Positions 1,080 through 63,600 of a DNA stretch of 64,000 bases are shown piece by piece. The notes below the pieces were generated by a model. That model saw only the letters and a list, made by a program, of their open reading frames with translations. It made no database searches and was not told the origin of the DNA. The stretch is taken from positions 25,916,001 through 25,980,000 of the forward strand of contig CDPCPM010000106.1 in the NCBI GenBank assembly GCA_976551045.1, written 5' to 3'. Each line of letters starts with the position of its first letter. Positions within the stretch are counted from its first letter, which is position 1. Position numbers and translations under genes: made by a program. The DNA comes from Glaucostegus cemiculus (Eukaryota).

Positions 1080-1152
1080 ATCACTGCTTCTGTGCTTGGT
1101 GTCATTTGGGTAACCAGTCGATTTACCTATGCATGGGGATATTACACAGGGG
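1080..1152 (+). CDS. MGST3: MGST3-family microsomal glutathione S-transferase (MAPEG), penultimate coding exon
   Basis: Acceptor ttttacag|, then ITASVLGVIWVTSRFTYAWGYYTG plus 1 nt, then donor |gtaggt. Matches the MGST3 ..AWGYYTG motif and is closest to the fish mgst3b type as I recall it. Its phase-1 end joins the 4302 exon in frame. Confidence 0.85.
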
Positions 1153-2335
1153 GTAGGTATTACTTAAATTATGTTTTTGTACAAATATCTTACTAGAAAA
1201 AATGTTCAAAGGATAAATGAATATGTTTGATAATGTTAAAGGACAATACCATAATTTCACCAGGAAAGAAAAGCATAAATTTTGGCTCACAGGACTCAAA
1301 TGTATCAAAGCATTCTGTTGTTAGAATACAATGCAAATTCAGCAAATATTTCCACAATCAGCAATGAAAAATTTTGGCTATATCATTTGAGGGAAGAATT
1401 TGGATAATACAACAGGATTGTTATTACCTATCAAAACTAATGGAATATGTTGACTGTATCTCTTAGAAAGGATAACACCTTCCAATAATGCAGCAATAAA
1501 AGCCAAAATCCTGGAAGGGAGTTGGAGTCCACCTGTGGATCCACAGGCAGGCATTACCAACTAATAAATACTGTCATTTGGTGTCAGTGTTAGCAAGAAA
1601 TGAAGCAGCAAGAAGTGTTTCTCCATCCAAAATAATTATACTCTAGGTTTAAAACATAATGGTGATGTAGTTTGGTGTCAGTCATAACAATGATGTAGAT
1701 GTAGTTATAAAGGAGGCCTGTAGTTTCAGAAAACCTAACACAAGAAAAACACATTTAATATGAGCTTTATGGCAGAGCAAACTAATTATATTCATCTCTG
1801 TAATACTACTCATCTCTACCCAGACCTCAAATCATTGCTGCTGGAACACTCATCCAGGCTTTTATTAAAAAAATACTTTTGGACTTAACCATTGTTCTTC
1901 TGGGCAACTTATCATCCTCCATAAGCTTATCCAAAACACTAATATGTCGTATTCTGAATTAAATACTAAGCAACCATCACCCTTGTTTTTACTGATCTGA
2001 ATCAACTCTCTGTGCCCCAACATCTTGAATTTAAGGTTCTTCTGGGAACAGAAATGGACATTCAGTTGACCAAGTCTGTTCTGCCATTCGGAATCAGAAT
2101 CAGTTTTATTGTCACTTCCATATACACATTCAGCATGCATGGGAGCGAAATACCGTACTCCACAGATCAAGGTGCTGGTCACATTAAAAACAATGAGAGA
2201 CGCAAAGACTGAAAGACATTAACGACATTGGAACCACCAAAATTAAGCCACCAAAATTAAGAAGAGACTCGATTAAAATATTCTTATAATGAACATACTG
2301 ATGCAGATTTAAAGTGCTGGTGCATTCTTGTACGC

Positions 2336-2820
2336 CTAGCATCCTTTGATGTTGACGAGAGGGATGGGTGGATGAGGGAGTTCATAGTTGTTATTGCTTG
2401 TGGGGAAAAAGCTATTGCACAGCCTGGTAGTCCTTGCCCGGATGCGCTGGAGCCTTCTTCCAGGTGGCAAGAGTGCAAAGAGGTGGTAGGAGGGGTGAGA
2501 CGGGTCAGACATTATGTTTGTCACCTTTCTGACACATCGGTCCATATACATGTCTGCAATAGAGGGTAGAGAGACACCTATAATCTTCTCTGCTGCTCCT
2601 ACTATCCTCTTCAGGGACTTAAGTCCCGCAGCTGAACAGCTCCCATACCAGATGGTGATGCAGTGTGTCAGGATACTCTCAATGGTTCCTCTACAGAACA
2701 TTTTCATGATGGAAGGATGGGAGTTCACTTTCCTCAATCTCCGCAGGAAGTAGAGGCGTTTCTGGGCTTTCTTGGTGAGGGCTGCGGTGTTGATGGACCA
2801 GTTCAGGTCATCAGCAATGA
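2336..2820 (-). mobile_element. Rex1/Babar-type non-LTR retrotransposon 3' fragment inside the MGST3 intron
   Basis: ORF 2336-2737 reads LRKVNSHPSIMKMFCRGTIESILTHCITIWYGSC...DPSHPSYHLFALLPPGRR...RLCNSFFP, typical of the post-RT C-terminus of this clade. Confidence 0.8.
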
Positions 2821-4301
2821 CTTATTTGAATTTTGGTTGCATTTCCCTGGCTGGGTTTTGCAACCCCTAATATCATTGCTTGACAAAGAAGTATCAGTTT
2901 TACACAGAATAGTCTTTGGGAGAGATACTTCCCAATTTTTACTACCCCTTGGGTGAATTAGTGCATTATGGCATCACCTCTGAGTGACAGAGCAATTCTT
3001 CTATGTTCTGGACTCCTGCAGCAAGGGCAGTTGTTTCTCCTTCCACCCTGAAGAAAGTCTCTAATCATCCCAAATACCAATTAGACCAACCTTTGATCCC
3101 CAGATATGAAGTGAATACAAGCCTTGTGTGTGCTATTTATTCTCAAAATGTAACTCCTTTAGCTCCAGTGTCATGCTAGTGAGTCACTGCTACTACCTGT
3201 CCAAGGCCAATATAGTACGAAATATGGACCACAGAACTTGGGTCTAACCAGAGCTAAGTACAGCTGTGATATAACATCCACCCCCAGTGACTTATGTATT
3301 AGGTCATTTTCATTTGTGTAGTTTCTAGCTTCTTGCCATTTAGAAAATACTTGGATTTTTTACGGGTCTGATCTAGATCATCTTGTACTTTCTCACACTG
3401 AACTCCATCTGTTATAATCAATCAGCTCAATTCTCTCATCCATGCCACAGGGACACCCAGTATGCTTTACAACTCTCTGATCTTTTGTGAATAATGTGAA
3501 TAAATGTAATGAAAAGCTGAAATTCGGTACCTATCCCTGGAGATCATCATTGGTCACACTTTACATTGATCAAAACCAAGCACGTATAGATTATTCATGT
3601 GCTCTTTTCCCTGCTTAGTTATTCCTTGTTTCAGCCACTGGGTTGCTCCAATTTCATGAGCCCTCATTTTCATTGTTTCCTTAAACCAATACCATTCCTC
3701 CACCTTCTCATGTTACATTTGCACAGTCCCATCTCTGTATCATTGACATGGGTAATTTGATATCAAACTCAAGTTTTATTAATCGCTTTGACAGTATTTT
3801 TCAAGTATTTCTCTTTAGCAGGTACACTTGTTGATGTTTTCCCTTTTCTAATACCCAAATGTCTATTTATTGGTCTTCTTTAATAAGTTGTTTACAAATA
3901 ACTTTACAAATGCTGACTATCTGCCTGTATATTTTCAGCATTTTACTTTTGTGGTTATTTATTTTTTATCTGCCCAGTTATCATTGTTTTTCCTCTCCTT
4001 GTCTACTTGATTAATATTTGTCATTGTAGTTTTGCAAAACATTCACCAAACCTTTGTCGCCTTTGATTCCTTCCGCACTCATTGGTCAGCATGTAGCCTC
4101 CAAAGAGTGATCTATAGAATTCACTGGTCCACAAGTCATGAAGATCCTACTTTCACACAAAAATTATTCAGTATCTATCCTTTAAATATGATGCACCATA
4201 TAAAACCTGCAATTTATATTTTAATAATAACCATCTCCAATAATGAAACCATTTTTGGTATTATAGATGATGGTTCAGCTGTTATCTGCTTTTCTTCACA
4301 G

Positions 4302-4399
4302 TGCCAGAGAAAAGAATGAGTGGGTCCTACGGATACATTGGCCTTCTGGGAGTTATTTTCCTCTCCATAGTCATTGCTTTTACAACCCTTGTTTCATAG
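4302..4399 (+). CDS. MGST3: MGST3-family gene, last coding exon
   Basis: Acceptor ttttcttcacag|, then (V)PEKRMSGSYGYIGLLGVIFLSIVIAFTTLVS*. This is the MGST3 P.KR..G.YGYIGL.G final TM helix, in frame with exon 1080-1152. The stop TAG is followed by TGA TAA. Confidence 0.85.
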
Positions 4400-7300
4400 T
4401 GATAAACCTTCTCCACTACAATGGGTTGAGGAAAATAAAAAACCAGTGTCCAGTGGTATTTGTCAGCTATTGTACATATCCAGCCATTTTGAGATGAACA
4501 CCATCTTAGAACAAGTTTTACCAACTTGTAGTAGTTTTCTTCCAGGTATGTTAAGCATTACAGTTTGAATAGATTTGTAGTACAAGCCTATTTTTTCTAT
4601 TATATTTAATAAAATAGCACACTGGGAAATAAGATTAAATTCCAAATTTTATTTTTTTTAATAAATTGTTAGGCAAATGATTGTTGCTTCTTCTGCCTAA
4701 ACTTGAATTCCTTTTTTACTTTAGCTAAAGGGTATGTAATTCTTGTTAAAGTGAATATGTAATATTGAACTAAGTTTAACATTTTTCATCTTTCAAGATG
4801 GTCACTAACTCAAGTTATTTCAAAATTTTATTCCAAGAGCCTTAGTTTATATTATGGTTTAAACTTAAATTGTCTGAAAGATCACAAGTAGAAAATGAAC
4901 TGTACAGAACATATGAAATAAAGCCAGGTTGTATTTCAGCTGATAGAAAAGTATAGAGCATTGAAAGAGAAAGCTAGGTACACTACGTGTTTGGGTTTTA
5001 TTTAAAGAAATAATTTTTCAGCACCATTGAGTTATCCATTTTAGACTTTATTCAAATCAAATAATGAAATGGCTTGAAGTATAATTTTGTCTTAAACTTC
5101 GTGTACATTGTTGTAACCATTTATCAGGATCCAACCATAGTCAATGATTTCTTCAAAAGTGGATTTTTTCATGTACAAATCTTGATGTGGCTGTTTCACA
5201 TTTAATTTCTAAATAAATATACATTTTAAAACCAATGATAGTTTAAGTTACTTTTGTTTTAAAAAAATTATACAAGTAGCTTTGTTATTGTTTCGTACTA
5301 ATCTATAAATGGACAGCAACAAGCCATCCAATTCACATTGCAGAATGCTGCAGAAATAACAAATGGTACAACCTTCATAGATTGCAGTGAGACATCAGGT
5401 AAAATTCTTCACACTAATTATTCTGAACAACTAACCAACTCCATGTCCGAGTTAAAAAACAAAATGATGGCAAGCAGCAACAATGGTTTTAAATGTGTGC
5501 TCCATCTTTTAAGTCATTTCAAGAAAATATTTTTTTCTTCAGTGGTCCTGCTTTATACTCCTGACTTCATTTTAGTTTGTATCTTCATCATGCAAGCCAC
5601 AACCGGATCTCCTCTTTATAATATGCAACAGCAATGATACAAATTTCCTAAAATAATTGAAAATAGAATCCCTTTCGCATTTACTAACAAATGGTGGAAA
5701 TATTTGTGTTGATAGCAACTCACAAGATCCAGCTTGGCTCCACATGGACAAACAGTCCAACACTTGGCCAAAGGAACAGTGCCCAACATCCAAAGCATTC
5801 AAGACGAGAAAATGTACTTTGCTACAAATGATGATGTCTTTATGAATCCTATTTGCAAAATAAACCTTTTGTGCCAAAGAGGGGATTTTTTTGTCAGCAT
5901 AAACATATTAATCTCCCTTTGCCAATTATTGCCCCTTTTGTAATTCTTGTAGTTTGGGGAACAAGAACAGCAAAATTAAAAGATATATTTCAATTACAGT
6001 ACTTTTTTCTATTGCCAAAAAGGTTTAATTTTTATACCCACTCATCTCTCCATTAACATTCTGGATCATCAGCACTACACACCAAACTACTGGTGAAAGG
6101 GTAAATTCAACTGTCAACAGGCACCAAATCACAAGGGCAATCACTGGGGTTAGGCTTTGATGGAAGATTGAATAATTTTGATCTCCTTAGCCTTTGAGCG
6201 TGCCATTGTCAGGTGGTCAGTTGAAATGAAATGTACATAAGAGGCAAATAGTGAACCTTTCCCAAACAATGTTTGCACCTTGTTAACTATCTCAATAGGT
6301 AAGCCATAATAATATTGATGATTTGATAGGGAAGTTCATTATGAATAGTTCAGTTAATATTAGTTTCATTACTGAGAAAGGACTACAGCTTTCATGAGAA
6401 GTGCTTGAATATGATATGGAGCATGCAATGTCCACAGGTAAATTCAATACATTTTATTTTTAAGTTTAATTTTGTTCAGTGTTATCCTATTTCATTAAAT
6501 GTAGGAAGATCACTTCTAAATAGTTTCCACCTTAAGGGACTGGCTACCTGGATGCTCCAAAAAAAAAACTAAACTTAAAACCATACTGAGAGGTCCCAGA
6601 GAACTGACTGAATATGCAGACTTGCCAACCAAAAGCCTGGTTTCCAAAGTAATGGTAGCTTGTGTTTCCACTAACCCAATGACATTGCTTCAGCGAGGAT
6701 GGAAGAACAAAAAGTTTGGATAGAATGCTTTTTCCTCCTAAATCTATGACCAAGGTCAAAATTTTCTATTGAATTTCAAAGTAATTTGAACAACAATGAC
6801 CAAGAACACCAACCTGTTGGCCTCCATTACATCAAATAAGCATTAAATATCATTATTTAAATATAGGGCTAGATTACATTCTGAAACAAAAGTCAGATTT
6901 GAACTATGATGCCCTATAGATTGAGGGGGCTTTTATTATTGAACCATATATGGGCATCTTGTGTACTGGAGACAACAAATAATGGCACTAAAAATATAAC
7001 ATGGTACACAAATTAGAATGTTCTACAAGAGATAATATTGGTTGGAAACACACTCCTCTATAGCCCTTAATTTTGATGGCAGGTTTGAATTTTTCTGCTA
7101 ATTCTAAATCACTTTATTAACAGAACAAACTGCTATGCCTTCTTTATATACAAATGCTAGAAAATGGAATACAATTAATTTACTGGGGAATTCTCATGGA
7201 CAGATATATGGATGTGAATTCATAGCTCCAGTACAACCATATCACTAATTTATTCAGTAAATTTGCTCAGAAATAGATTAATGTTGCACAAGATTCCTTC

Positions 7301-7469
7301 AAAAATGAAATATTTACAAATTTTGCATAACCAATTCACCAATGTTAGTACTTGAGAAGCAATTATTTGTTAACTTACAACTCAATTTCCATATTGTTTT
7401 TAATGTAGCAATTCAGAAATGTTATCAATTATGCCAGGTTACACTAAGTAGTAGGGTGCAAGTCCATGA

Positions 7470-7632
7470 CACTTTGTCTACCTGCACTGCCTCTGTCACT
7501 GTTATACTTTATTCTGCATTTTACCTTGTACTACCTCTATGCACTGTGTAATGAATTGATCTGTATGAATGGTATGCAAGACAAGTTTTTCAATGTACTG
7601 AGGTACAAATTACATTAATTAACCAATACAAA
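7470..7632 (+). repeat. 3' tail fragment of a LINE/SINE family, related to 55770-56072
   Basis: tctacctgcactgc...ctgtaatgaattgatctgtatgaatggtatgcaagacaagtttttca...aaccaatac, similar to the 55.9-56.07 kb copy. Confidence 0.55.
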
Positions 7633-8292
7633 GTCCAATGAAGTACAGTGAAGCACATTACAGGAAGCAAAAGAAAACCAGCTTTAGGAAGGAATTTCAA
7701 AACTTCAGTTGCCTCATTGAGGAGTATCTGGTAGAAGAGAAATGAAGATGACAGATGCTTGGGAATAGTAATGTGAAGTCAGTAATGATAAATCTCTGGC
7801 TATGATTGAATAAACAATCACTGGTACTGTTCTAACCAGCTGACCAAGAAGTGCTTGAAGATTGCGAGTTCAACTGCAAAAACATTGATTGCCATTGTCA
7901 GTCACATCAGGTGTCATTAGTGACTGTATTCAGAGCCATTTTTGTAGCAGAAATTTGACTAGAGACATTAACCAAAGTATCAAGCTACCGAAAATTAGGT
8001 CAACCAAAGGATGTTTATTAAAAACTAAAAAATTATCAATATTCCCAATATTAAAGATAGCAAAACAAAGTACAACCAATTGTCATAGCAGTGCACTTTC
8101 AAGTAGTTTTTCAGCGAGTTGATTCATCTGCTTAAAAGGCAAATTCAAACAAAAACAAGATATGCATGTTAATATTTTGACTAATCACCTTTACACAGTT
8201 GGGGTCAACCACCTTCAGTGGATTTTGGAATCTTCAATTATGTGCAACAAACTTTAGACCCACAGAAGTACAAGAATTTTCAACCATACATC

Positions 8293-8298
8293 TTTATT
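8293..8298 (-). promoter_or_regulatory. Candidate polyadenylation signal of SNRPC
   Basis: tttatt on + is AATAAA on -, about 400 nt past the SNRPC stop codon. Confidence 0.5.
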
Positions 8299-8701
8299 TT
8301 TCGGCCAAAAAAAGACATGGCACAGGATGTGGCAAAAAAATGGACAATTAGAATCCGTCTTTTAAACTGTCCTATACACTTGGGGGGGGGGGGGGGAACA
8401 ATTGTACAGCCAGAAAAGTAATACACAAGCCAGCCGTTTCCTGCAAACTGAGTCAGATTCAGTAAATCCCTGAACTGGACAGTACATGTTAAACGATAAT
8501 TCAGATTTGCACGTTGGAAATCCGCTCGCACTGGCTGCACTTTGGTTGTTTAATAAAGATGGCGATAGGTATGGGACCTGCTCAAATTCATAACAAAAGT
8601 GTTACAAAACTGATCTTGAACTGGCGGCGCTGCCGTCCCACTGTCTTTGATCCGGTGGTATGAAACGCTGCACTGGGTAACGTCCTGCTTCCAGCCTTTG
8701 C

Positions 8702-9187
8702 TTATCTGGTTGAGCGTACTAATCCGGGTCTGGAAGGCACCATCATGGGCCGGTGAGGCCCCATCATCGGGCCCGGCATCATGGGCACCGGGCCGCCGAT
8801 GGGCGGTCTCATTCCCGGGCCCACCAACATCATCCCAGGAGGCGCGGGGCCCATCATCGGCATCATCGGCGGCCCTCCCATGGGCGGCCCGGGGAGGATG
8901 GAAGGCCGCGGCGGCGGCACGCCCACGTTGCCAGGCGGCGGCGGGATGGCGGCCCCGGCTGGAGGCGGCCCGGCCGGCGCCGGGAAAGGAGCGGTGGGCG
9001 GGATCTTGCCCTGGCGGAAGGCGGCCGTGGTCTTATCGATGAGGCTCTGGGCCTGTTCCTCCATCCATTTCTGATAGTAGTCCTTGACGTTCTCCTTGTG
9101 CTTGCGGCCCTCGCAGTGCGTTTTGCGGACGGACGGGGAGTCGTGGGTGAGGTAGGTGTCGCAGTAATCGCAGTAATACTTCGGCAT
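8702..9187 (-). CDS. SNRPC: U1 small nuclear ribonucleoprotein C, intronless, 161 aa
   Basis: [57 protein letters not shown] is the U1-C matrin-type zinc finger, followed by the Pro/Met/Gly-rich tail ending RPGLVRSTR. One uninterrupted ORF with ATG at 9187. Confidence 0.96.
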
Positions 9188-9984
9188 CTTGTCTCCTCGC
9201 TCGGCCCCGGCTCTGCGTCTCCAACGGCGCGCCGCGTCACCGCACACGTGACTGCCCACAGAGAGACATGCGCAGTACCTTGGACCTCAACAATATGGGA
9301 GCCCACGCCCTGGTCACGTGACGGGGCTGCTATTGGAACAGCCGTTGCTGGGGGTAATTACTGCAGATACTGGAAATGGGAGCCACAAACATGAAGTGCC
9401 GGAACACACAGCAGGTCAGGCAACCTCCGTGGGAGGAGAAATGGAGTTAACATTTGAGTGTCTTCGACCCGAAACGTTAACATATTTTTTCTCCGCAAAC
9501 GCTGCCAGACCTGCTGTGTGCGTGTTTACAGTATTTCAGAAACTGCTGGAAATGTGTCCTTTCGTTGTAAATATCGCCCTTACAAACACGTACGTTGCAT
9601 CCTGCTCATTGCATCAAACCCTCTGCTGGCAGAGACACAAGTTGCTGGAGGGCCGCGACGCCGGCCGACCGTCCACTCCCCGCCACAGCTGCTGCCCGAC
9701 CCACTCCGTATTGGTGGAACTCAGCGGGCCGGGCAGCAACTGTGGTGGGGAGGGAGGGGGAAAATTTATAGCCATTACAGATCGTTAATTTCCATTGGGA
9801 CTGCGACCCCCTAATCCTTGCTCAGAGAGACAATTGGTCCCTTATAATTGCGTCACTGAAGGGCGGGGTTGCACATGCGCACCGCCGCTTGGACGGGTAA
9901 AAACCAGGCAGTTTATTCTAAATGATTACGTAATGGGGGCCAACACCATCGATCACGTGACGATTAATCCCCTCACGGGCATGC

Positions 9985-10046
9985 GCACTGCTCTCTTGCT
10001 CAGACAGGATTGCCTATTGTTTGTGGCAGGATCTGTGGGTGGTCGA
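9985..10046 (+). other. TMEM50A: Probable non-coding first exon of TMEM50A (start approximate)
   Basis: Consensus donor cga|gtaagt at 10047, just downstream of the + facing motif cluster. The first coding exon has an acceptor 1 nt before its ATG, so an upstream exon is required. A second gtaagt lies at 10163. Confidence 0.6.
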
Positions 10047-10479
10047 GTAAGTACGGGTTGTGTTCTTGTCAAACCCAAGTTTTATCTAATGATCTGGTTG
10101 TTTATTTCGTTCTCTTCGTTTTTTCGGAACGCGCATTGCGCCTCCCAGCCGTGGATGCGGTTGTAAGTGGGGGTTTTATGCCTGGGCCAATGCTGAACTG
10201 TGAAAGGTCCCTGGTAATCGTGCGGAAAGTTTGGGTGTGGGACTGGCTGTTGCAGGGAAATCTGGCTGTGTTAGGAGACAGTTGTATATGTTGTAAATTA
10301 AAAAAAAATTATACCCAGGAGTATAAATTCAAGGCCATGGCTTGGCCTATTCATCCACATTTCAGTAGCTTTTCTCCTCCCACTGCGTTCCTAAAAACCT
10401 TTCTAACCGATATTCAGTTGAGTTCTGATGGGGGAGAAATTTCCTCAGGGGGAGTGCAGCCAGAACCAAGTCCGTGGGT

Positions 10480-12080
10480 CGCTTGTCTGTACAGGGAATG
10501 AGGTGAAAGGTCAAGAGAGCAAGAGTTTAAAAGGGATTCTATGGTTAGGAGGGCAGACAGGTGTTTCAGTGGTTGCAGATGTGATTGTGATGTAGTGCGT
10601 TGCTTTTGTGATGTTAGGGTTGACTGTAGAAAATTCAGGAAGATTGAACAGCTGGTAGTTGTACCCAACATTGGAACCAACAACGTATCTAGAAGTGGAA
10701 AGGAGGTTCTCTTGGCAGATTTTATGGAGGTGGAGGTTAAGAAGCAGGAACTCAGAATGGTAACATCTGGTTTATTCTCTGTGTCACATGCCAATGAGAA
10801 TAGAAATAAATCATTCTGAATAAATATGTGGTCAGAGAAAGTACAAGGCAGAGTGCTTTAGATTCGTAAGCAGTGGGACCAATTATCAGGGATGTCGTAT
10901 ATTTTGACTTTAAAAAGGGGTTCAAAAAGGTGCTATATGAGGTTATTAAACAAAATTAATGTCCTTAGTATTGGGGGTAGTAAATTGACAGATTGACGAT
11001 TGGTTAATGGGCAGATGGCAGATTGTTGGAATAAGTGGTTTATTTTCAAGTTAGTGGGCTGTGACTAATAGGATATTAAGGAGAAAATTTATGGCAAAAT
11101 TGCAAAAATGTGTATAAGCCATAGAATAGACAATGGGAGACTTCAACTGGGATAGCAATAACATGAAGGTTAAAGAGGGGGAGGAGTTTCTTAAGTGAGT
11201 TAAGAAAAGCCTTGATCAATATGTTTCCAGCCCTAGAGGAACTTGACTTTGCTTGACTTGGGTATGAGAAATGAGTGGAGAAATTATCAGTTGTGGACTG
11301 TCTAGAAATCAATGATCAGGAGCTTGAATAGCAATGGAAAAGAATACAGGTTACACCAACATAAAAACACTCAATTGGAAAAGGACAAGTTTCAATGGGA
11401 TAAGAACAGATCTGGCTTGCATAAACTGGAATCAAAGCTGTAATTGAAAAATAGGATACCTTTTTAGTTGGGAGGTATTTTATCTGTAGGTTTAGGTACA
11501 TCCCCATGAGGGAGAAAAGAAAGGAACTTCATAGTTGAGCAAAATTATAGCGGTCAAAATAGAGAAGTGGGATTTAAAAAAAACAGCTGAAAGATTGTTA
11601 ATGCAAATTAGAATTAGGCTGATTCCAAGATGTTCAGAAGAGAAGCAAAAAAAGAAATGAGGCGAAGAGAAATCCTGATGAACTTCTAAAACACTTACTT
11701 GGCCACAATGTGTGTAATGTGCCTGGTTGTGATTGCCACATTTTAGGAGAGATGTGAAGATGTAGGAGAAATGCGGTAAAGATGTGCAAACATATTTCCA
11801 AGGAAGACTTTGGTTTGCATAGATTGGAGAAGCTGAGATAAAAGTAATAGAATCGCAAAGGGTAAAGTCAAAAGGAAGAAACTATTCCCATTGGTGGAGG
11901 GCTCAAGAACAAGGGGACATAGAATAAAGGCAATTGGCAAAAAAAAACAAAATTGACATGGTTGGGGTGTGGAATGCACTGCCAGGTATAGTACTGAAGA
12001 TAAGTTCAACTGTGGTATTAAAAAGAAAGCTGAAAGAATTTGCTGGACTATAGGGGGAGGATGGGGAGTGGGACTTTAAA
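10480..12080 (+). mobile_element. Degenerate CR1-type LINE fragments (ORF1 esterase-like, ORF2 pieces and 3' end)
   Basis: LVVVPNIGTNNVSRSGKEVLLADF resembles the SGNH-esterase ORF1 of CR1. Also seen: gacttcaac (GDFN), RT-like ttcaaaaggtgc..atgaggttatta, and a 3' gggctcaagaacaaggggacatag segment. Confidence 0.65.
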
Positions 12081-16160: not shown

Positions 16161-16355
<195 letters not shown>

Positions 16356-17639
16356 TGATAAGATGACTGTAGTAGTATTTTGTAAAAGATTAGATTTATA
16401 AAAAATTATGCAACTGATGATAATGGCACTATAACAAAGTTCTAGTGTATCTTGGATCTCAGAAGTTGCCTGCTTAATCCAAATAGCACTGATTCTGATG
16501 AAAGATCATGAACTTGAAATATTAATTGATTCTCTCTTCACAGATACTGTGTGAGCTGTTAAGTATTTCTAATATATTCTGGTTTTGCTTGAGGTTTCTA
16601 CCATATGCAGATTTTAGCTTTTAAACACCTTTTAAAATTATTTTTCTCCACTAAATAGTACCTATATCAATCAAGCTACATTATGGGTTCCATTTAAGAA
16701 GAGCACCGTGTAAAGCATGAGCTAGTTGCTGAATTAGTTCAGAGTCCAGCATGCTGAATGTAAACTATTTATCTATATGTGTTGTGACTGTGAACTGAAT
16801 CACTGGAGAGATACTGAAACTGGTTGATATAAGAAGTCTTTGTTCATCACAAATGCAAAGTACATCAAGTTTTTATGCTCAAGAACAATAACAGCAGGTG
16901 CTTCAATACAGTTTCAATAGCTATGATGACATTGTCAGATACAAAATATTGAAGTAAACAAAAGGGTTTCATTGATGTACATATTTACAGTGGGAGCATA
17001 TAGTAACTGACAAGATGCCTATGAAGATTCAAACACCTTTGGGGCAAAGTAATTCATATGGGTGGTCTAAAAGGTTCTGCGGACAGAGAACCCAGACACC
17101 CAAAATTACTGTTGTAGGGCTGACTCTCTCAGTACACAAATATCCCAATTATTGATGGAGCAGGTATGCCTGTGACTGTGTTTGTGCTAAGTGACAAAAT
17201 CAGTCTGGTCTGGAAGCTTCCTTAATCTCAGTCTCAATGGTGCAAAATAATTTAGCCAATGTTGCCTGGTTTGATGTAGGCTAATTAACATACTCCATTA
17301 TCTTGCATTTGGCTGATGCATACAAGAACATCTCATGGTTGCATCAGTTTGCAAATCATATCTCTTGAGCAGCCAGTCCCTAGTTGTGGGCCAGTCGCCT
17401 GTTCTCTGTAGATGGTACTGTTTGTTTAGAAAGCTGCCCTTTTAATTTCAAACTTTTAATTTTTGCTTGCAATTTGTATTAAGAACTAAAGACTGGTTCT
17501 CTTTTGAATTAATGCAGGCTATATTTGCATAATTCCATAACTCCTGAATCCCTAACAACATGTAAATAAATATACCCTTTTTATTCCCATCTTTGCTCTC
17601 CAAGCAAGCACAGTAATGCAACAGGTACTGCATTTATCT

Positions 17640-17830
17640 TGTTACTCCAGCAACCCAAGGTCAATCCTGAGTTCTGCTGCTGTCCATGTGGAGTTTGCAC
17701 ATTCTCCTTTGTGACTGCATAGGTTTCTCTGGGTGCTCTGGTATCTTCCCACACCCCAAAAATATGCTGGCTGTTGGCTACTGTAAACTGCTAGTGTAGA
17801 TGGATGGTAGCCAGCATGAACTGAATGAGC
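17640..17830 (+). mobile_element. tRNA-derived SINE relic (V-SINE-like)
   Basis: gctgtccatgtggagtttgcacattctcc..gtgactgcataggtttctctgggtgctctggtatcttcccacaccccaaa. A related fragment lies at 28750-28905. Confidence 0.6.
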
Positions 17831-18334
17831 TGAGTGCCTTCTACATCAAAGAAAATATGATGTAGGAGGCACTCAGCTTATTCCCACCCCCCCCCCCCCC
17901 ACACCCCCTCTTTAGCTCAAAGCATTAGCCTTTTACAATTGGATTATGGGGTCTTCTGGTCCTTCATTCAAGCTGATGACAATTTGAATTTGCGGTGTTA
18001 ATAACCAAGCATAATCTCATCCTTGCACGCCATTAGATGAAGTATGTATCTGACTGGGAATCTAGGCTGATTATCCCAAATTTGGACTGAGGCAAATTAG
18101 TGTTATTACTGCCTTGGCTTTGAGCATTTAATGTCACGGGGGTGAGACTGAATTGGGGAACAACTCAGTTGGTATTGCTTTCCTTGCTGATTTTGGGTGA
18201 ATTTTTTTTGTGCCTTTTTATTCTGATATTTTTACAATTATTTTGTATCCTTGAACTGTCAGACACTAATGTGAGTTAGAGAAAATGAATTCTATATTTA
18301 CTAACACAATTTTAAAGGATTTGGTGCCTTTTAG

Positions 18335-18448
<114 letters not shown>

Positions 18449-19307
18449 TAAGTAGAGATGAATTTTAGCAATGAGATTTGTATTTGCTTACTGGGCTTTG
18501 AATATGTCAATGCCTCCCATATCGATATTTGTGTCCCCTGTAACTTAGTTTGAACTCCATCCATGACTGCTCTCCTGCCCCAAACCAGATGTCTTGAAAC
18601 CTCATTGACCAGTTTTTAGAAATTCTCTGATGTCACTTTCTGTATGATTGTGGGATTTTTTTGCTGGTGTAAATCTTCTTGTATTTCTTCTGTAAATAAA
18701 AAGAACATGGTTTAGTCTGACTGTTGCATTGTTATAGCTGGGTTCATCTGATCCAACTAAATGAAGCAGCATTTTCACTGTAGATTTAATTCATTAGAGA
18801 TGTCTTGTTTTTTTGAGCACGAGCCAGCCCACTATACAAATACACCCTATTTGCCAATCTCATTCTTTGGAAACTATAAATCCTTGTTTTTTGGGCAACT
18901 TGGACCTCTGACCAATTTCAAGTCTTTAAACTGCCTCTGACTTTTAAACTTTTCTTGAGTCTCAATGAGCTGATCAGAGCATTCAGTCATTTATGAATTA
19001 TTTCACAAGCCATTATTCATTGCTGTGTTTTTTCTTTTATGTTGAAGTTTCCTTTCGGACAGCACAGTTCCTGGGATTGCAGAAACCTTAGCTATCTGCT
19101 TTGTTCACACAACATGGGTGTTGAATTGTTTTCTTATCTGCCTAAGGGAAATAGTAGCAAATTGGAATTAAAAACAGAAAATACCAGAAACATTCAACAG
19201 GTCAGACAGCATGTGTTTTTCTCTCCACATGTGCTCCCTGACCTGCTGTGTGTTTCTGGCATTTTCTGCTTTTTTCAGTTTTTTGTTTCAGTTACAACAA
19301 TAAATAA

Positions 19308-19463
<156 letters not shown>

Positions 19464-19829
19464 TAACTGCTTGTTTCTGGTTAACTCTAGTTCTTCTGGA
19501 CCTTTTTGTCATTTTGTTTTTATTCTGATTGGATGTTATAATTCCCTTCTAAACAAGATTTCCTTTAACAGAATCAGTTTTCGTATATAAAAAGATGTAT
19601 TTTATATAATGACTTTTCTCAACTGCACACCAAAACGGCACAACAAAACACTAATAGTACCTTCTGTGATTATAACAAAGGTAATCCATCTCTTCTCACC
19701 TTCCTTAACCCGCTTGCAGCTTTTGACATACTTGCCTAAACAATCCACTTTCAGCATCTCTCTATGCTTATCTCTCTGGCAGGACCATCCTTGCCTGGTT
19801 CCATTCTTGACAACTTAGTTACAGCTAGA

Positions 19830-20130
19830 GAATCACATGCTAGCATTTCTCTTCCTTGCAACATTGCTTCTGTGCCTTCCAAGTATCTCTCTTGACATCC
19901 CCACCCAAATTCTTATCTGCACGCTGCCCTCATCTGAAAACAATGTAAAGGTCCACGTGTGTAGATGACATCCAACACCAGAAGAGGAAAGATCGCCAGT
20001 AGCAAATATTTGGAAGACCAGAGCCATCATCATCTTCCAGTGAACTGCTGGCCTTCAGCCAAACCCCAAACCTCTCAAATCTCTTCACGGAATCCCTCCT
20101 ACAAGCTTTTGATTGTCTTTGCTCCATTAA
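19830..20130 (-). mobile_element. Possible RTE-type LINE 3' relic
   Basis: The degenerate KACRRDSVK...W translation resembles the RTE C-terminus. Heavily decayed. Confidence 0.3.
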
Positions 20131-20159
20131 ATGTGCTATTAAGAGGGTGGATTTGAAAT

Positions 20160-20430
20160 GTGTTGCTATTCCATCATGAAGCAGCCATTATGTACATGGA
20201 AAACTCCCAGAAACAGCAATGTGATAATGCCCAAACTATTTCAGTGATGTTAATTGACCCATACCCAGGGATAATCATACTTGGTGATGTGGGATATTTA
20301 TGATTGAGGTTCTTTTTTTGATTTCTCATTTGAAAGATAACACCTCCAATGGTGGAGCACTCCGTCAATACTCCACAGGAGTAGCAGTGTCAAGAGAGAT
20401 TGAGCCCAAAAGCTGATTGGGAGGACAATC
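20160..20430 (-). mobile_element. Deu-domain SINE relic (SacSINE1-like)
   Basis: Reverse strand reads gtattgacggagtgctccaccattggaggtgttatctttcaaatgaga...cattatcacattgctgtttctgggag. Related copies at about 44280-44620 (+) and 60830-61020 (-). Confidence 0.55.
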
Positions 20431-20737
20431 TCCTAACCAGCTCAAGAATATAATTACATCTATAACCTGCACACCAGTTTTTTTTCCCATGGTTTACCTT
20501 TTGAATTAATTAAAACAACATATTCAAATACTATTGATCAAATAATTCCTCTCAAGATTACATAACACTCATTACTTATGACTTCACTAGTAGACAATCA
20601 TTAAAATAATGTCAATCTTATGTACTACTTGGAACATTTCTGAAGATAACATTTTTAAAGAAGTTACTATCATTTAATCAAACATGGATAATTTTGTTGT
20701 AAATATTATGCTACCGTACCTTCACGTAGTAATTTGA

Positions 20738-20893
<156 letters not shown>

Positions 20894-22159
20894 TAAAACT
20901 GAAACAGAAATAATTGGCTATGATTAATTGCTTCCTGTGTCCATGCCTTCTAAAGATTAAAAAGAAATTAAGAAAAACATGTATTGCCAAGAAATGCTTA
21001 CTGTTTCATTTTTGGATTAAACTTGGATTAGATTTTTGAGGTTGAAGTTTGTGTGGCTTGTTTGTCTAATGTGATCATAGCTGATCTTTTGGCACCACTT
21101 TTCTGTATGAAACTATATCCCTTGATTTCCCCTAACACTTTATTAATTTTGAATACTTCAGTGAACAAACCTCATAAATACATTTATGCAGTTGAGGGCA
21201 TTATTCTTGAGTACATGTTATCTTTGCTGATATTTAGCATCTGTTGTGAGAGACAGTCAAGTTTGTTCACTGGTTTGTTTGAGCACATGCAAGGAAGTCA
21301 CTTAGATACAGAGTTCAGGATAACTGAACCATCATAACTCATAGTGACCATTTGTACCCTAGGCTTAATTGCACATGACCTGCATTATTAAATTTTAAGG
21401 ACACATATCTAAGATGAATCTTTTCTTGACCAGTTAACTGTTACTTTTGGCTAACCAGAGATAAAATTCCCACTCAGAATGTTGATTGTAACAAAACATC
21501 CATTTGATCAGTGTTACATATCTTCAAAGGTCATTTTTAACAAGCTACATATTATTAGATGACATATTTCCTATAATGACCAGATGTTCCTAAAGCCATC
21601 ACCTACATTTCTAGAGTTTACTTTCTTTAGAGGTTCCTTATGTTTTCTAAAACATTTAGTGTGGAGCCAGCAGGTCAGTTAAGTTCTTGCTTATCGTTTG
21701 TTCCTGAATACAATTACAGAAATGGGGTCTAATAGGGCTATTTAATAAGACTGCCCTGAGAAACTCCTGCAGTGATAATCAGTCTGGATCCAGGATAACT
21801 TCCACCACCACAACCATCTTCCTTTGTATGACCCCAGCCATGGGAGTGTTCTCCCCTCAATGCCCATTGACTTCAATTTTGCCAGAGATCTTTGATGTTC
21901 TACTCTGTCATTTGCTGTCTCTGTCAAAGGCAGTTACTGTTACCTTGCCTGGAATTTGGTCCACGTTTGTATGAAAGGCTGTGATGAGGTCTGGAGCTAA
22001 ATGGTCCTGGCAAAATCCAAAGTGGGTATCCATGAGCAGTTTATTGCCGAGTAATTGCAGCTTCATAGCTTTGCCAGTGACACCTTCCATCATTTTGATG
22101 AGTCATAGCTTGCAAAAGGGAATTTGACAAATATTTAAAGGTTTGAAAAAAAAACTGCA

Positions 22160-22626
22160 ATGATTCCTGGTATGAAAGGGCTTACCTATGATGAGCGTTT
22201 ATCGGCTCTTGGACTGTACTCATTGGAGTACAGAAGAATGAGGGGGGACCTCATAGAAGTGTTTAGAATGTTGAAAGGAATGGATAGAGTAGATGTGGAT
22301 AGGCTGTTTCCCTTGGTGGGTGAGTCCAAGACTAGAGGGCACAGACTTAGAATCAGAGGGAACCAGTTTAAAACAGAGATGAGGAGAAATTACTTTAGTC
22401 AGAGGGTGGTGGAATTGTGGAATTCTCTGCCACATACAGCTGTAGAGGCTCAGTCAGTGGGGGCATTTAAAGGGGAGTTGGATAGGTACCTAATTAATCA
22501 AGGTATCAAGGGATATGGGGATAAGGCTGGAAATTGGAGATAGCTATGTTATCTTTTCTCTTCTCATGGAGCAGACTTGAAGGGCTGAATGGCCTACTTC
22601 TGCTCCCTTGTCTTGTGATCTTGTGA
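22160..22626 (+). mobile_element. Young 5'-truncated CR1 LINE
   Basis: Open 127-aa ORF2 C-terminus (MIPGMKGLTYDERLSALGLYSLEYRRMRGDLIEV...RNYFSQRVVELWNSLP), then a 3' UTR ending in (TCTTGTGA)2. Confidence 0.9.
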
Positions 22627-22850
22627 GGGGTAAAGGTGGATGGAATGAGACTGACAATTGCTGTGTAGAGTTGCTGTTGACTGAATGGGCCAAATCCTCA
22701 ACCTCCTAGTACTAATGACTACATTATAAACAATGCTAGTATTCAATTGAGCTATATAAGTGGGTGTTCTGTTTTATTTCTGTCTGTTTTTAATACAGTC
22801 AATTTGCATTTTTATTATACAAAAGAAATTATTTATTTTTCTCTTTTTAG

Positions 22851-22911
22851 AAAAGCCTGATGTTTACCCTGGTATAGCTGTCTTCTTCCAAAATGCATTT
22901 ATCTTCTTTGG
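22851..22911 (+). CDS. TMEM50A: TMEM50A coding exon 5
   Basis: ctctttttag|(Q)KPDVYPGIAVFFQNAFIFF(G)|gtaagt; 61 nt. Confidence 0.95.
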
Positions 22912-22957
22912 GTAAGTAGAAGAGGAGACTAGAAGTCTGCATGAGACCTGTTCCCAA

Positions 22958-23380
22958 AGAACCATAGAAAACTACAGCACAAAAAAACAAACCATTCAGC
23001 TCTTCTAGTCTGTGCCAAAACTTCTGCTAGTCCCATTTACCTGTTCCCAGCCCATAACCCTCCAGACCTCTCTCGTCCATGTATCTATCCAATTTACTTT
23101 TAAAGGTTAAGAGTGAGCCTGCATTTACTACATCAGATGGCAGCCCGTTCCACACTCCCACCACTCTTTGAGTGAAAAAGTTCCCCCTAAAGCTTTCCCC
23201 TTTCACCCTAAAGCCATGTCCCTTCGTACTTATCTCTCCTAATCTAGGTGAAAAGAGCCTACTTGTATTAACTCTGTCTATGCCCCTCATTGTTTTGTAA
23301 GCCTCTATCAAATCTCCCCATATTCTTCTCTGCTCTAAGGGATAAAATCCTAACCTGCTCAATCTCTCCCTGTAACTCAA
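22958..23380 (-). mobile_element. 5'-truncated CR1 LINE
   Basis: ORF reads SYRERLSRLGFYPLEQRRIWGDLIEAYK...GNFFTQRVVGVWNGLP. CR1 3' UTR with a TTCTATGG-type tail. Confidence 0.9.
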
Positions 23381-23484
23381 AGCTTCTATGAACTATACAT
23401 TAATCCTAAGTGATTGAAATACAGAATTGCCTTTCAGTTATTACACTGAAATTCTAACTTTTTCATGATCTTGTTTTGTTGCAG

Positions 23485-23530
23485 GGGTCTAGTCTTCAAG
23501 TTTGGGCGCACAGAGGATCTGTGGCAGTAA
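23485..23530 (+). CDS. TMEM50A: TMEM50A last coding exon
   Basis: ttgcag|GLVFKFGRTEDLWQ*. The six exons total 480 nt, giving 159 aa plus stop. The TEDLWQ end, NGQVRGD and FGGYV fit TMEM50A rather than TMEM50B. Confidence 0.95.
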
Positions 23531-28720: not shown

Positions 28721-30954
28721 ACTGGGTGGGCTAGGTTTGGGTGCTTCTTGTTTCTTCCTACATCCCAAAGACATGAGGGCTGATAGGTTAATTGACCGCT
28801 GTAAATTGTGTGTTGGTGAGTGGTAGAACCTGGGTGGAGTTGACATTAATGTGGGGAGAATAAAAATAACGATTGGGTGTAAATTGTTTCTGTGCTGTAT
28901 GACTCTGCCTATTCCAACAGGTGGACAGATTTTCAGGTATTAATGGACTTGAGTGATATGGAGTTAGTGCAGGAAAGTGATGCAGAGGTAAAAGATCAAC
29001 CACAATCTTGTTGAATGGCAGGGCAGAAATGAGAGGCTAAAGCTTCTATTTTTTTGCACGTGTTGACTTCTATGGCTTCTGAATTCTTGCTAACACTGCT
29101 TTGGTAGCAGTGCCTGTAAAGTTTAGTTTGATGTCCTTGTGCTCTGGAAAATATGAATCATAAGCAAATCCACCATTTGCTGATGTTCTTCACTGTGCAG
29201 TGATGATGATTCCACCTCCCAACGTTTCCCGTACTGCTGCTCTTGCAGCATGCCTCAGCAGGATGACCAGTGTTACATGTGTAGCATTCTTCCTTAAACA
29301 GGGAACAATTTTGGATGAAGTGCTGCACAAAGGCGTTCAATTGGCCTCCAATACCGCTAGCATTACCACTATATTTACCATCATCACCTCTGGTTTCCTG
29401 GAAACCATGACCACTTGGGACTGGGTGCTGCTTTAACTGCAGTATATTCAGTGTTACAGATGTTTGTTCTGGACAAGTCCCTCATTAGCCATATTCAAGA
29501 ACAATGCTGTTGATATGGCAAATCAAATGTCAAGTTGGGAATTGTTGACTATTTACTACAAATAAATTAATTCATCAACCCCCACTGCAAGCAGTCCCAC
29601 AATGTTCTCTCCCTAGGAATTTCCAAAACGGCAGCATGTGGAGAGCGCCACAATACATTCACATGTTGTCAGATTTCAAGTTGATTCCCCAACCTCAGAT
29701 AACTTCTAGCCGATCTCTAATTGCTCAGGATCATGATGTTGTTCCAACTTTTGTCAATATGTTTTTCACTGACATTGAGGTTTTATGAACCTCAGGCCCT
29801 GCTTCAGTTCAGGAGATTGTCCATTTTCTCCCTGATACGAATTACTGTGAAACTTCCATAAGGCTGTTTACAGTGGAAGAACTCTCCAATCTATTCATGG
29901 AATCCATAGTTCTACCCCTAATAGTGGTATCTTTTCAGGGGCTCATATTACACATTACTGTATATGTGTGCATGATTGCTGCCAAATTCAATCTGCTCTG
30001 AGCAGTAGTTTATCCCTCTTACCATACGATGGCACCATTTTACTAACTTCCACAGCAGAGCCAGGACAAGCAAGGCCCTTGTGTGACACCTCGGGCTGGT
30101 TCTATAGGCCTTGTGCACAACAGAATTTTGTTAGTGGGCCACCTGGTGCAAAACAAGTGTGACCTGCCTCTTCAGCACCAGGTTTACTGGGGAAATAGAC
30201 TGAAAAGAATTAAAAATGGAAGTAGAAACAAAGAAAGAGTAATGAAGGAGGAGAGAGAGAGAGATCAAATTCAATGAAAAGAAACTGGACAGGAAGCTAC
30301 TGATGCACTTCACTGTTTTCATGCTCTTCACTTCTGTTGAAGGTGACCATTACTCCCACTATTTTTGGAAAAATTACACTCAGGATCCTTAGGCACAACA
30401 GCTAGAAGATTTTTGGTTATCATTCCAAAGAGGAATACTGAATTAGAATATTGTAGAGATTTTGTGTTTAGAATTACTGTGCAGAAATATTTTTGACTGA
30501 TATTTAATCTAACACAATTCATATGAATATTATCAAGTATTATTCACTTCCCTATCCAATAAAATTCCTAACCCCACCACGCCTGCGGAGTGTAAAATAA
30601 GGTAGCTCACCAAGAGTAGGGAGAGGTAATCACACTGGACTGCCACCAGGTCTGGCTCAAGAGAACGTATCGGGATGCTGAGAAGCAAGTATCTTATTGG
30701 CTGAATGATGCACATCTTATTCCTGACAATAGGAGCTGCAAAATAAAAGGAAGAAATAGGAAATTAATCAAACAGTAGAAATCTTTCAGAAGATACTTGT
30801 ATTCAGATAGAAGAGCCTAAAAGCAATAGAAATTTCATCAAAGCAGTGGTGGTGTATATTAATATGAAGATATTCACAAAATAACAAACTCTGGATATCT
30901 GGAACTCTGAGGATATGAAGATGGACAAAATATTATTTGGTATAATTAACTCAA

Positions 30955-31330
30955 GGACAGTAGCAGCCAGCTTGATCACAGGCACAACCCTCCCCACCAT
31001 CGAGGACATTTTCAAGAGGGGGTGCCTCAAGAAGGTGACATCCATTACTAAAGACCCTCACCATCTAGGACATGCCCTCTTCTTGTTACTACGATCAGGG
31101 AGGGGGTACAGGAACCTGAAGACCCACACACAATGTTTCAGAAACAGCATCTTCCCCTCTGCCATCAGATTTCTGAATGATCCATGAACCCATAAACACT
31201 ATCTCATTATTTCTTTTTTATGCACTATTTACTTATCTTGTAATTTATAGTAATTTTATGTCTGCACTGTACCATGCCGCAAAACAACAAATTTCACATC
31301 ATAAGACTGATAATCTGATTCTGATTCTGA
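30955..31330 (+). mobile_element. Rex1/Babar-type LINE 3' fragment with (ATTCTG)n tail
   Basis: ITGTTLPTIEDIFKRGCLKKVTSITKDPHHLGHALFLLLRSGRGYRNLKTHTQCFRNSIFPSAIRFLN, ending aatctgattctgattctga. Confidence 0.85.
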
Positions 31331-46059: not shown

Positions 46060-46975
46060 AAATAGATAAGGATGGAAGAGCTTCACTGGTGCCTGAAGAC
46101 TTCTGCGAATGATTATATACTGTTCAATTCCATTAGTAACTCATCGGCAAATGAAGCAACCCGTTCCAGCATGCAGCAACAGTTCAGGCATGGGCTAATA
46201 AGTGGTAAATCACATTCATGTCCCAAATTGCTGGGCAATGACAATCTCCATTAGGAGAGAGTCTAACCATTCATCCTTGACATTCAATGGCAATGGCCTG
46301 GCATTAACCTCCTAGGGGTCATTGTTGACAAGAATGTCAGTAGAAACAGCCATATAAATACCATGGAGGAGGTCAAAGGCTGAGTATCCTGCAGCAAGTG
46401 ATTCACCTCCAGCTCCTGATACCCAAAGGCATTTCCACCATCTATAAAGTTCAAGTCATTAATGTGATAGAACACTCTCTTCCTGCCGGGAAAGAGCAGA
46501 GCCAGAACTCACAAGGAGCTCAACGTGATCCAAGCCAAAGCAACCTGATTCGTCTGTAGCCCATACCATCCTAAACATTCATTCCTTCCACCATCAATGA
46601 AATGTGGCTGCAATATTTACCATCTACAAAAATCACTGCAGTTACTTGCCCAGACTACTCTCACAACGCCTTCCAAGCCCATGATTTCCACCACCAAGAA
46701 GGACAAAGGCATGAGCTTCATGCGAATACCACCACCTCCTAGTTCCGCTACAACTTGCACATCATATTGACTTGGAAATATACTGCCAGTCTTCATCATT
46801 GGTAAGTCTAACTTCCGGGACTCCCTACCCAAGGCACAGTGGGAGTACTTTGCCGAAAGACTACAATAGTTCATTGAGGGAGCTCACGACCAACTTCTCA
46901 AGGACGATTATAGGGATAGGCAATAAGCGCTGGTCTTGCCAGTGAAATCCGCATTCTGAAAATGAATTTTAAAAA
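46060..46975 (+). mobile_element. Degenerate CR1/L2-group LINE 3' region
   Basis: RT-like gcgaatgattatatactgttc and ctaggggtcattgttgac segments. The family tail gggcaataa..gctggtcttgccagtga..catt ctgaaaatgaat also appears at about 34900 and 52640. Confidence 0.6.
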
Positions 46976-61984: not shown

Positions 61985-63600
61985 CATGGGATACTAGAAT
62001 CTGGGTAACAAATAATCTGCTGGAGGAACTCGGGTCAGGCAGCATCTGTGGGGGGGTGGGGGGGGGGAATGGTCAAAACCCTGCATCAGGACCGAGAGTG
62101 GAGAGGGAAGATGGCTGGTATAAAGAAGAGAGGGAGAGTGATGAGATGGGCTAGTAGTTGTTTGGTGGACCGAGGAGGGGTGAAGGATGATGGGCAGATG
62201 GAGCCAGGAAGGGGGGAGGGGTGGAGTGGAGGTGGGAGACAGAAGAAGAGGCTGGTGGAGCTAGGTGGAGACAGGCAACAAAAAAAAAATTAGATGGAGC
62301 TGGGTGGGGGGAGGGAAGGGGAGGGTGAAGGTGCTGGAGGGTGATACTGGGAACATAAAGGCTACCAGTGCTGGAATCTGATATGTAAGGAAGTTGATAA
62401 TGGGATCCATTGGTGGAGAGGTGGAACCAGGTGGGGGAGGGGATCTGGTGTGTGAAACGTGTGGGTAGTAGGTGGATGGAACCAGGGAGGGGAATGAAGA
62501 TTGGTGGGGGAGGTGGGAAAGGGGACAAAAATAGGGGGACCAGAGGTGGATGGGAAGAAGAGAGAAAGGGGTGGGACATAGGAGGTGCACGTTGCCAGAA
62601 ATTGGAAAATTCAAAGTTCATACCTTTGGGTTGTAGACTACCCAGGAGGAAAATGAGCTGTTGTTCCTCTTGTTTGCATTGGGCCTCACCCTGGCAGTGG
62701 AGAAGGCAGAGGATGGATAGGTCAGTGTGGAAATGGGAAGGGGAGCTGAAATGACATGCAACCGGAAGCTCATGATAAAGAAGACAGGGTGCAGGCACTT
62801 GGCAAATCAGTCACCTCGTCTGTGCTTGGTCTCAGTGACGTACACGAGGCCACATCAGGAACACCGAATGCAGTAGACGAGGTTGGAGGAGGTACATGTA
62901 AATTTTTGCTTCACCTGGCAGGGCTGTTTAGGTCCTTGGATGTTGTTGAGGGAGGAGGTGTAAGGACAAGTGTTTCACCTCCTGTGGGTGCAGGAGAAAG
63001 TGCCAGGGATCGGGGGGGGGGGGGGGGGTGGGGAGGAATGAGCGGACCAGACAGTAATGGAGGGAGTGGTCCTTGCAGAACGCAGAAAGGGGTGGGAGGA
63101 GAAGATGTGGCTGGTGGTGGGATCTTGATGGATCTGGTAGAAATGATGAATGATGATGTCCTGGATGCAGAGGCCAGTCAGGTGAAAGGTGAGGGCTAGG
63201 GAAACTCTATCTCTGTTCAGAATACTGGGAAATGGAGAAAATTCAAGATAGGACTCCACCAACCACAGTAGAAGGGAAGCCACATTTCCTGAAAAAGGAG
63301 GACATTTCAGATATCCTGTAATGGAAGGCCTCATCTGGAGAACAGATGCAGTTGAGAGAGTGAAGCTGAGAGAAAAGGATGGCATCCTTTCAGAAGATAG
63401 TATGGAAGGTGATTTAGTCTAGGGAGCTGTGGAAGTCTGCGACTTTATAGTAAATGTCAGTGGATGGTTTGTCTCTTGAGGTGGAGATGGAGAGCTCCAG
63501 AAAAGGGAGTCAGAAATGGTCCATGTGAATTTGAGAGCAGGGTTAATGTTAGTAGCGAAGGTGAGAAAATTGATGAGTTCCGCACAGGTGCAGGAGGCAA
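61985..63600 (-). mobile_element. Penelope-like element (RT C-terminus plus GIY-YIG endonuclease), degenerate
   Basis: LPVACHFSSPSHFHTDLSILCLLHCQGEAQCKQEEQQLIFLLGSLQPKGMNFEFSNF and RVSLALTFHLTGLCIQDIIIHHFYQIHQDPTTSHIF are typical Penelope-like motifs. A pyrimidine-rich 3' region is followed by a gatgctgcctgacccgagttcctccagc end. Confidence 0.85.

Follow-up and report, generated by a model that had tools for sequence, protein, structure and literature searches.

How a gene for the spliceosomal protein U1-C (SNRPC) came to lie, as a single coding exon, next to TMEM50A is the question raised by a stretch of 64,000 nucleotides from Glaucostegus cemiculus, which as a whole is referred to here as the window. 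A sequence-only reading had taken this gene for an intact retrocopy at the TMEM50A promoter, old and kept under selection, which either replaced the parental gene or acts as a second U1-C. The features on which the argument is based are collected in Table 1.

Table 1. Coordinates of the features discussed, in positions of the window, with the basis of each assignment.
Feature	Positions	Strand	Basis or remark
SNRPC (U1-C) CDS, single coding exon, 161 aa + stop	8702..9187	-	ORF, Pfam, alignment
U1-type (matrin) zinc finger, residues 1-38	9074..9187	-	Pfam; contact list from PMC4383343
Codon 26, Glu (Ser in bony vertebrates)	9110..9112	-	Alignments
In-frame 135-nt stretch of the CDS, bounded GC...AG	8875..9009	-	Equals the segment missing from the Callorhinchus model
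AATAAA, likely polyadenylation signal, use inferred	8293..8298	-	403 nt past the stop, then a GT/T-rich stretch
CpG island over the SNRPC CDS and the divergent promoter region	8501..10500	.	CpG o/e per bin
SNRPC-side motifs: CACGTG-core 9245-9252 and 9313-9322, TGCGCATG 9267-9274	9245..9322	-	Motif search
TMEM50A-side motifs, same two kinds: 9874-9881, 9953-9961, 9980-9987	9874..9987	.	Motif search
TMEM50A non-coding first exon, inferred, start guessed; end 10046, donor GT 10047	9990..10052	+	Donor score
TMEM50A coding exons, six blocks (16224, 18335, 19359, 20741, 22851, 23486)	16224..23530	+	Divergent partner
MGST3b last two coding exons (1080-1152, 4301-4399)	1080..4399	+	Tail-to-tail with SNRPC

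The SNRPC reading frame runs uninterrupted from ATG to TAA. Its residues 1-38 match the Pfam family zf-U1 (PF06220) with an E value of 6e-23 and 80.8 bits against a cut-off of 22, and residues 1-160 align with residues 1-158 of human U1-C (PDB 6qx9_1C) with an E value of 6e-71. As this end-to-end alignment shows short indels only, the coding sequence, though not necessarily the UTR, is without introns, and as the Pro-rich tail is included in it the orthology extends over the full length of the protein. Reading frame, Pfam match and human alignment agree in this way with the earlier description of an intact, intronless U1-C of 161 residues without disabling mutations. Within residues 1-61 three differences from human U1-C are found, namely Tyr4, Glu26 and Arg58, the first of which is common to lamprey and invertebrates.

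The codons are as rich in GC and CpG as had been stated. The coding sequence has 67% GC and a CpG observed/expected ratio (o/e) of 0.92, where the window as a whole has 38.5% and 0.21; GC3 is 0.82 in SNRPC, 0.32 in TMEM50A and 0.37 in the MGST3b exons, and NCG codons amount to 25/60, 0/29 and 0/14, respectively. Past the stop codon the AATAAA reported before is present, and an ATTAAA lies at 8554. Equally in line with the earlier description, no poly(A) remnant was found in the 800 nt past the stop, where the longest run of A is 5; this absence is expected since the insertion would be old. The search for a target-site duplication gave one 8-nt direct repeat (8259-8266 and 9255-9262), whose copies lie near the expected SNRPC transcript start and cleavage sites, and it was rejected because 380 of 2000 shuffles match it, which is chance level. 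No long flanking pair was found in the repeat search around SNRPC. A long G homopolymer of the plus strand (8382-8397) corresponds to a C-run within the SNRPC 3' UTR.

Homologues were taken from a database clustered at 90%, in which 120 of 779 matches were listed and 107 of these carry a full source name. Three of the 107 are named as chondrichthyan, from Chiloscyllium (bamboo shark), Callorhinchus (chimaera) and Narcine, the last being a degenerate 'like' copy; the chondrichthyan shark cluster has seven members. The window protein differs from that of Chiloscyllium at 6/161 positions (96% identical), from that of Callorhinchus at 9/116 and from the Narcine copy at 16/111, and in residues 1-60 there is no difference from either Chiloscyllium or Callorhinchus (0/60 each). 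In a tree built from 22 named rows it forms one clade with the three chondrichthyan proteins (support 99/98) and groups with the Narcine copy (88/76, a node not starred), two residues being common to both. Tetrapod and ray-finned U1-C among the matches listed are at most 85% identical to the window protein. The ESM Atlas matches are U1-C clusters only.

The Narcine protein (P0089, 'U1 snRNP C-like') is of the Glu26 type but degenerate, with 8/60 changes in residues 1-60 and an internal gap of 45 residues, and it suggests that secondary copies have been made from a Glu26-type SNRPC in rays. The Callorhinchus model is without 45 residues that correspond exactly to the GC...AG stretch of the window, the ends of which do not match what we take to be the exon boundaries of human SNRPC. 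This gap is most likely a false intron, produced by gene prediction across a very GC-rich segment, and the stretch is possibly equivalent to a real exitron. The resemblance of the gap to a false intron gives a hint that the chimaera SNRPC is contiguous too.

The sequence-only reading had also pointed to Glu at residue 26 where human U1-C has Ser. This difference is real in the alignment with 6qx9_1C, but as a special feature it did not hold. Glu26 occurs in 3 of the 107 named homologues among the matches listed, all of them chondrichthyan (Chiloscyllium, Callorhinchus and Narcine), and Ser26 in 95; lamprey and hagfish carry Gly at this position, Saccoglossus carries Gln and a sandfly Thr. A novelty of the window copy is ruled out, as shark, ray and chimaera proteins have the residue in common. 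The paper on the U1 snRNP structure gives T11, Y12, T14, H15, S19, R21, K22, H24, R28 and K29 as contacting or near the RNA or SmD3, all ten are identical between the window protein and human U1-C, and the paper's text makes no mention of Ser26 (PMC4383343). The same source reports that yeast growth is unaffected when conserved contact residues are replaced singly by Ala. As Glu26 is common to the chondrichthyan proteins listed, stands at a variable site and is unnamed among these contacts, it is, judged by sequence comparison, a lineage trait, and a small electrostatic effect beside Arg28 and Lys29 is conceivable.

The number of exons gives the change its direction. In the survey of PMC8458698, lamprey U1C has 6 coding exons, zebrafish, Xenopus, anole and turtle have 6 exons, bony-vertebrate U1-C genes in general have 5-7, and Drosophila, Ciona and yeast are each listed with a sole U1-C of one exon; terms for sharks and Callorhinchus do not occur in the accessible parts of that survey. 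Since lamprey and bony vertebrates carry 5-7 exons the intron loss is derived, and so is the single-exon state of the coding sequence among vertebrates. Moreover, in the 95 of the 107 named homologues that could be anchored (12 rows are without an anchor), the match starts at residue 4 in 25 cases and at residue 18 in 3, among the matches listed, and these starts are therefore regarded as footprints of early exon junctions.

SNRPC and TMEM50A are divergent and have one CpG island in common, as in a bidirectional pair, and no other run of 500-nt bins in the window exceeds a CpG o/e of 0.5. The best-scoring plus-strand donor within 9200-11000 is that of the putative first exon of TMEM50A, and it is 859 bp from the SNRPC ATG. 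The placing of the gene at the TMEM50A promoter is thus correct in that TMEM50A adjoins SNRPC in divergent orientation, but the TMEM50A start codon is 7 kb off and the link to the promoter goes through the putative exon. SNRPC does have the upstream motifs of its own that had been attributed to it, with CACGTG-core and TGCGCATG elements on its side. The counts exceed those expected from shuffling, with 2 against 0.22 for TCACGTGA, 3 against 0.48 for TGCGCATG and 5 against 0.21 for GTCACGTG, four of the five copies of the last being inside 9245-9961. This enrichment in the divergent region is suggestive, since the patterns were chosen post hoc and the shuffles ignore the composition of the island. 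The CACGTG-core and TGCGCATG motifs are presumably E-box/USF-like and NRF1-like, respectively. Because the motifs form two sets, one on the side of each gene, SNRPC and TMEM50A may have two core promoters on one island. The divergent promoter region has at its centre an inverted repeat of 30 nt (9676-9752, 87% complementary, spacer of 17 nt), and a second inverted pair of 18 nt is formed by 9405-9422 and 9503-9520.

On its other side SNRPC is followed by a MAPEG gene, whose closest matches are all named MGST3b and comprise five shark entries at 84-87%. The neighbours formerly given as MGST3 and TMEM50A are in this way identified by matches as MGST3b and TMEM50A; no Chiloscyllium entry was found among the matches for either. 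The skate Mgst3-2 promoter appears on another chromosome, Leri_10C, in the supplement of PMC10115646. RSRP1 was looked for between MGST3b and TMEM50A (4400-10100), and none of the 67 segments sent to Pfam, out of 106 candidates and including all 57 of the minus strand, gave a match; SNRPC may occupy the RSRP1 slot beside TMEM50A. Downstream of TMEM50A (24000-64000) none of 63 candidate segments matches Pfam, although TMEM50A is followed by RHCE in chicken and human; RH or other genes may nonetheless lie there, and a strong candidate exon is present at 46407-46482 (-). Open reading frame remnants that look retroelement-like by translation are present at 2336-2821 (-), 22139-22543, 23027-23392, 30885-31187 and 62750-63418, the first of which matches Pfam ALKBH8_N (E 4e-15), probably a repeat-derived match. 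The Rfam scan of the window gave no matches.

The order ILRUN-SNRPC-BLTP3A is presumably that of mammals, ILRUN being C6orf106 and BLTP3A being UHRF1BP1. Published mammalian data place SNRPC beside C6orf106, on chromosome 6 in human (PMC6459222, PMC6345421). For the little skate, Table 10 of PMC10115646 gives H3K4me3 promoter anchors, in which the Snrpc bait is at Leri_26C 20.75-20.76 Mb and the Tmem50a bait at 20.76-20.77 Mb, so that the two promoters are in adjacent 10-kb bins of chromosome 26. The C6orf106 and Uhrf1bp1 baits of the same table are at Leri_24C 8.26-8.27 Mb and 8.28-8.29 Mb, and LER24 corresponds to chicken chromosome 26. The site of SNRPC therefore differs from the mammalian one, whose neighbours sit on another skate chromosome. 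No 24C bait is present at 8.27-8.28 Mb among the 11,485 rows of the skate table (50,601 interactions are reported), which is a weak sign of the absence of the parent, as a multi-exon gene could fit the 10-30 kb gap. In chicken and human the genes near TMEM50A include RHCE, RSRP1 and SYF2 (PMC11188259), and the SNRPC-TMEM50A linkage common to the Glaucostegus window and skate is not seen in these two species in that source.

The skate orthologue is transcribed, with a baseMean of 2018 in fin RNA-seq besides its H3K4me3 bait (PMC10115646). In the same data it bears the symbol Snrpc without the paralogue suffix seen in Mgst3-2, and the only carriers of PF06220 in the fin table, which is one of differentially expressed genes, are Snrpc, Wbp4 and Zmat5. 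According to SI Table 5 of that paper Snrpc (LE28302) differs between pectoral-fin regions (log2FC -2.5, padj 2e-24); this is odd for a housekeeping gene and could be a GC bias acting on a GC-rich single-exon transcript.

By position the event took place no later than the separation of Glaucostegus from the skates. It may predate the shark-chimaera split, as suggested by protein data, which do not date the insertion itself. No position of SNRPC in cyclostomes or amphioxus was found in five supplementary files of PMC8302630 (file 4 was outside the search), and the direction given to the move is an assumption, since it is set by intron loss and not by an outgroup position.

Taken together, the best explanation, to which we assign a probability of about 0.65, is that SNRPC is an orphan retrogene that captured the CpG-island promoter of TMEM50A and became the main U1-C gene. 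A spliced SNRPC mRNA would have been reverse-transcribed and inserted head-to-head some 0.7-0.9 kb from the TMEM50A start, where the unmethylated housekeeping island would have given the retrocopy broad expression, and the later spread of the island across the short gene would account for the CpG-rich codons. The intron-containing parent, which probably lay between ILRUN (C6orf106) and BLTP3A (UHRF1BP1), would then have turned redundant and been lost. Composition points to a long residence of the copy in an unmethylated island, since a recent copy made from a methylated gene with several exons would be expected to resemble its neighbours. The protein would have the ordinary role of U1-C, which is to stabilise the duplex of U1 snRNA and 5' splice site through backbone contacts, and the window gene is by prediction a working, lineage-specific U1-C gene of a cartilaginous fish acting in the U1 snRNP. 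The earlier view of an old retrocopy kept under selection is supported by the ancestral introns, the conservation of the protein, the island-equilibrated codons and the expression of the skate orthologue at the same site. Of the two fates it had left side by side, replacement is the one favoured. Among the 107 named homologues (matches listed, 779 in total) no further chondrichthyan U1-C of the parental type was found, and a distinct parent in sharks would in most cases be expected as a 90% cluster of its own because tetrapod and ray-finned U1-C are already so distant; the parental gene is, on these sequence comparisons, probably gone. Slow-evolving lineages can hide in clusters, and a parent with the same residues could be concealed in the seven-member shark cluster.

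The same facts can be arranged differently. The introns may have been lost in place by recombination with the gene's own cDNA, the gene being already beside TMEM50A, with the bony vertebrates as those that moved, or having been moved as DNA. The lack of both a poly(A) remnant and a target-site duplication would suit such a course, as would the missing outgroup position in the five files of PMC8302630, and the sole U1-C genes listed for Drosophila, Ciona and yeast show that short genes can lose every intron (PMC8458698). We nevertheless regard it as unlikely, as two independent events, a complete loss of introns and a move, are needed, and retroposition is preferred because one event explains both the intron loss and the new site. 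Moreover, C6orf106 and Uhrf1bp1 are still adjacent in skate, which is what the loss of a gene from between the two would leave (PMC10115646).

Somewhat less probable again is a functional retrogene beside a surviving intron-containing parent, that is a second U1-C, for instance a tissue-biased one. Extra intronless copies are common, with 18 of 110 animal U1C genes intronless and 72 of 110 in multi-copy sets (PMC8458698), and a coexisting parent could sit within a 90% cluster; yet only one chondrichthyan type is seen among the named homologues listed, the skate fin table holds no further SNRPC-like carrier of PF06220 among its differentially expressed genes, and the high expression is in embryonic fin and not in gonad (PMC10115646). 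In addition, the degenerate Narcine copy derives from the Glu26 form, which suggests that it is this form that was copied in the germ line. A young or dead processed pseudogene, intact by chance, has hardly any probability left. The transcription evidence does come from the skate orthologue, and Narcine P0089 demonstrates that degenerate copies occur in rays, but the window protein shows no N-terminal difference from shark and chimaera, CpG has been kept at an o/e more than four times that of the window, and skate has the same site with active chromatin and expression (PMC10115646).

The orphan retrogene reading can be extended. That a single U1-C, intronless, retroposed and co-regulated with TMEM50A, has served all cartilaginous fishes from a time before the shark-chimaera split is a proposition for which we would give even odds. 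Highly doubtful is the further proposal that this U1-C, through a fixed Glu26 or a regulated GC-AG exitron, measurably changes the stabilisation of weak 5' splice sites; the exitron would remove 45 residues of the Pro-rich tail, and Glu26 would act two residues from the RNA-facing Arg28/Lys29.

Cartilaginous fishes have the slowest-evolving genomes of the jawed vertebrates. If the parent is truly gone, an essential core-spliceosome gene would have been replaced in them by its own retrocopy by means of the CpG island of a neighbour. The event, if true, would be a rare genomic change by which the batoids, the elasmobranchs or the chondrichthyans as a whole could be marked, would call for caution in synteny-based orthology of SNRPC, and would provide a natural test of the importance of the SNRPC introns for the regulation of SNRPC. 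The mechanism would remain unchanged, as orphan retrogenes are known and one-exon U1-C genes are listed for Drosophila, Ciona and yeast (PMC8458698).

As to novelty, it had been asked whether an intronless SNRPC is already annotated at this position across vertebrates. Snrpc is annotated here in skate (PMC10115646), but the position is not vertebrate-wide, since TMEM50A is accompanied by RSRP1/RHCE in chicken and human (PMC11188259). In literature listings and abstracts nothing was found that reports a chondrichthyan SNRPC as retroposed, and subscription papers or bioRxiv and catshark supplements could hold one; a term search of the main text of the silver chimaera paper (PMC12952989) gave nothing on SNRPC retroposition, and searches of PMC8792474, PMC10924073, PMC11406177, PMC7677710 and PMC8302630 added nothing. 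The skate annotation and the class of orphan retrogenes are thus known, and it is the retroposed origin that seems to have gone unremarked.

Head-to-head pairs of genes on CpG islands with bidirectional promoters are a known arrangement. The window resembles them in its putative divergent starts less than 1 kb apart, its one island and the repeated CACGTG and TGCGCATG motifs, and differs in the separate motif sets of SNRPC and TMEM50A. RNF113A and ZNF830, both with a spliceosomal role, belong to the class of orphan retrogenes. Of these 25 have been described in human, with these two on the list (PMC3548309), and 21 in Drosophila (PMC2879276), and like them the window gene is intronless, presumably relocated, conserved and of housekeeping type, whereas other genes and lineages are concerned and the parent of SNRPC is only probably lost; SNRPC is not named in the accessible text of the former paper, nor do U1C or snRNP terms occur in that of the latter. 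The intronless SNRPC-like copies of mammals (PMC8458698 Table S2) are one-exon U1-C genes from the same mRNA, but in the species listed a multi-exon gene is also present and many of the copies have zinc-finger changes, unlike the window gene, which is unchanged in residues 1-60 across shark, ray and chimaera and bears a plain name in skate. Compared with the U1-C/SNRPC family itself (PF06220; 6qx9 chain 1C), the window protein has the full-length match, the zinc finger, the contacts and the Pro/Met/Gly-rich tail, and it is set apart by one coding exon where lamprey and bony vertebrates have 5-7, by a place beside TMEM50A where the mammalian gene is beside C6orf106, and by Tyr4, Glu26 and Arg58.
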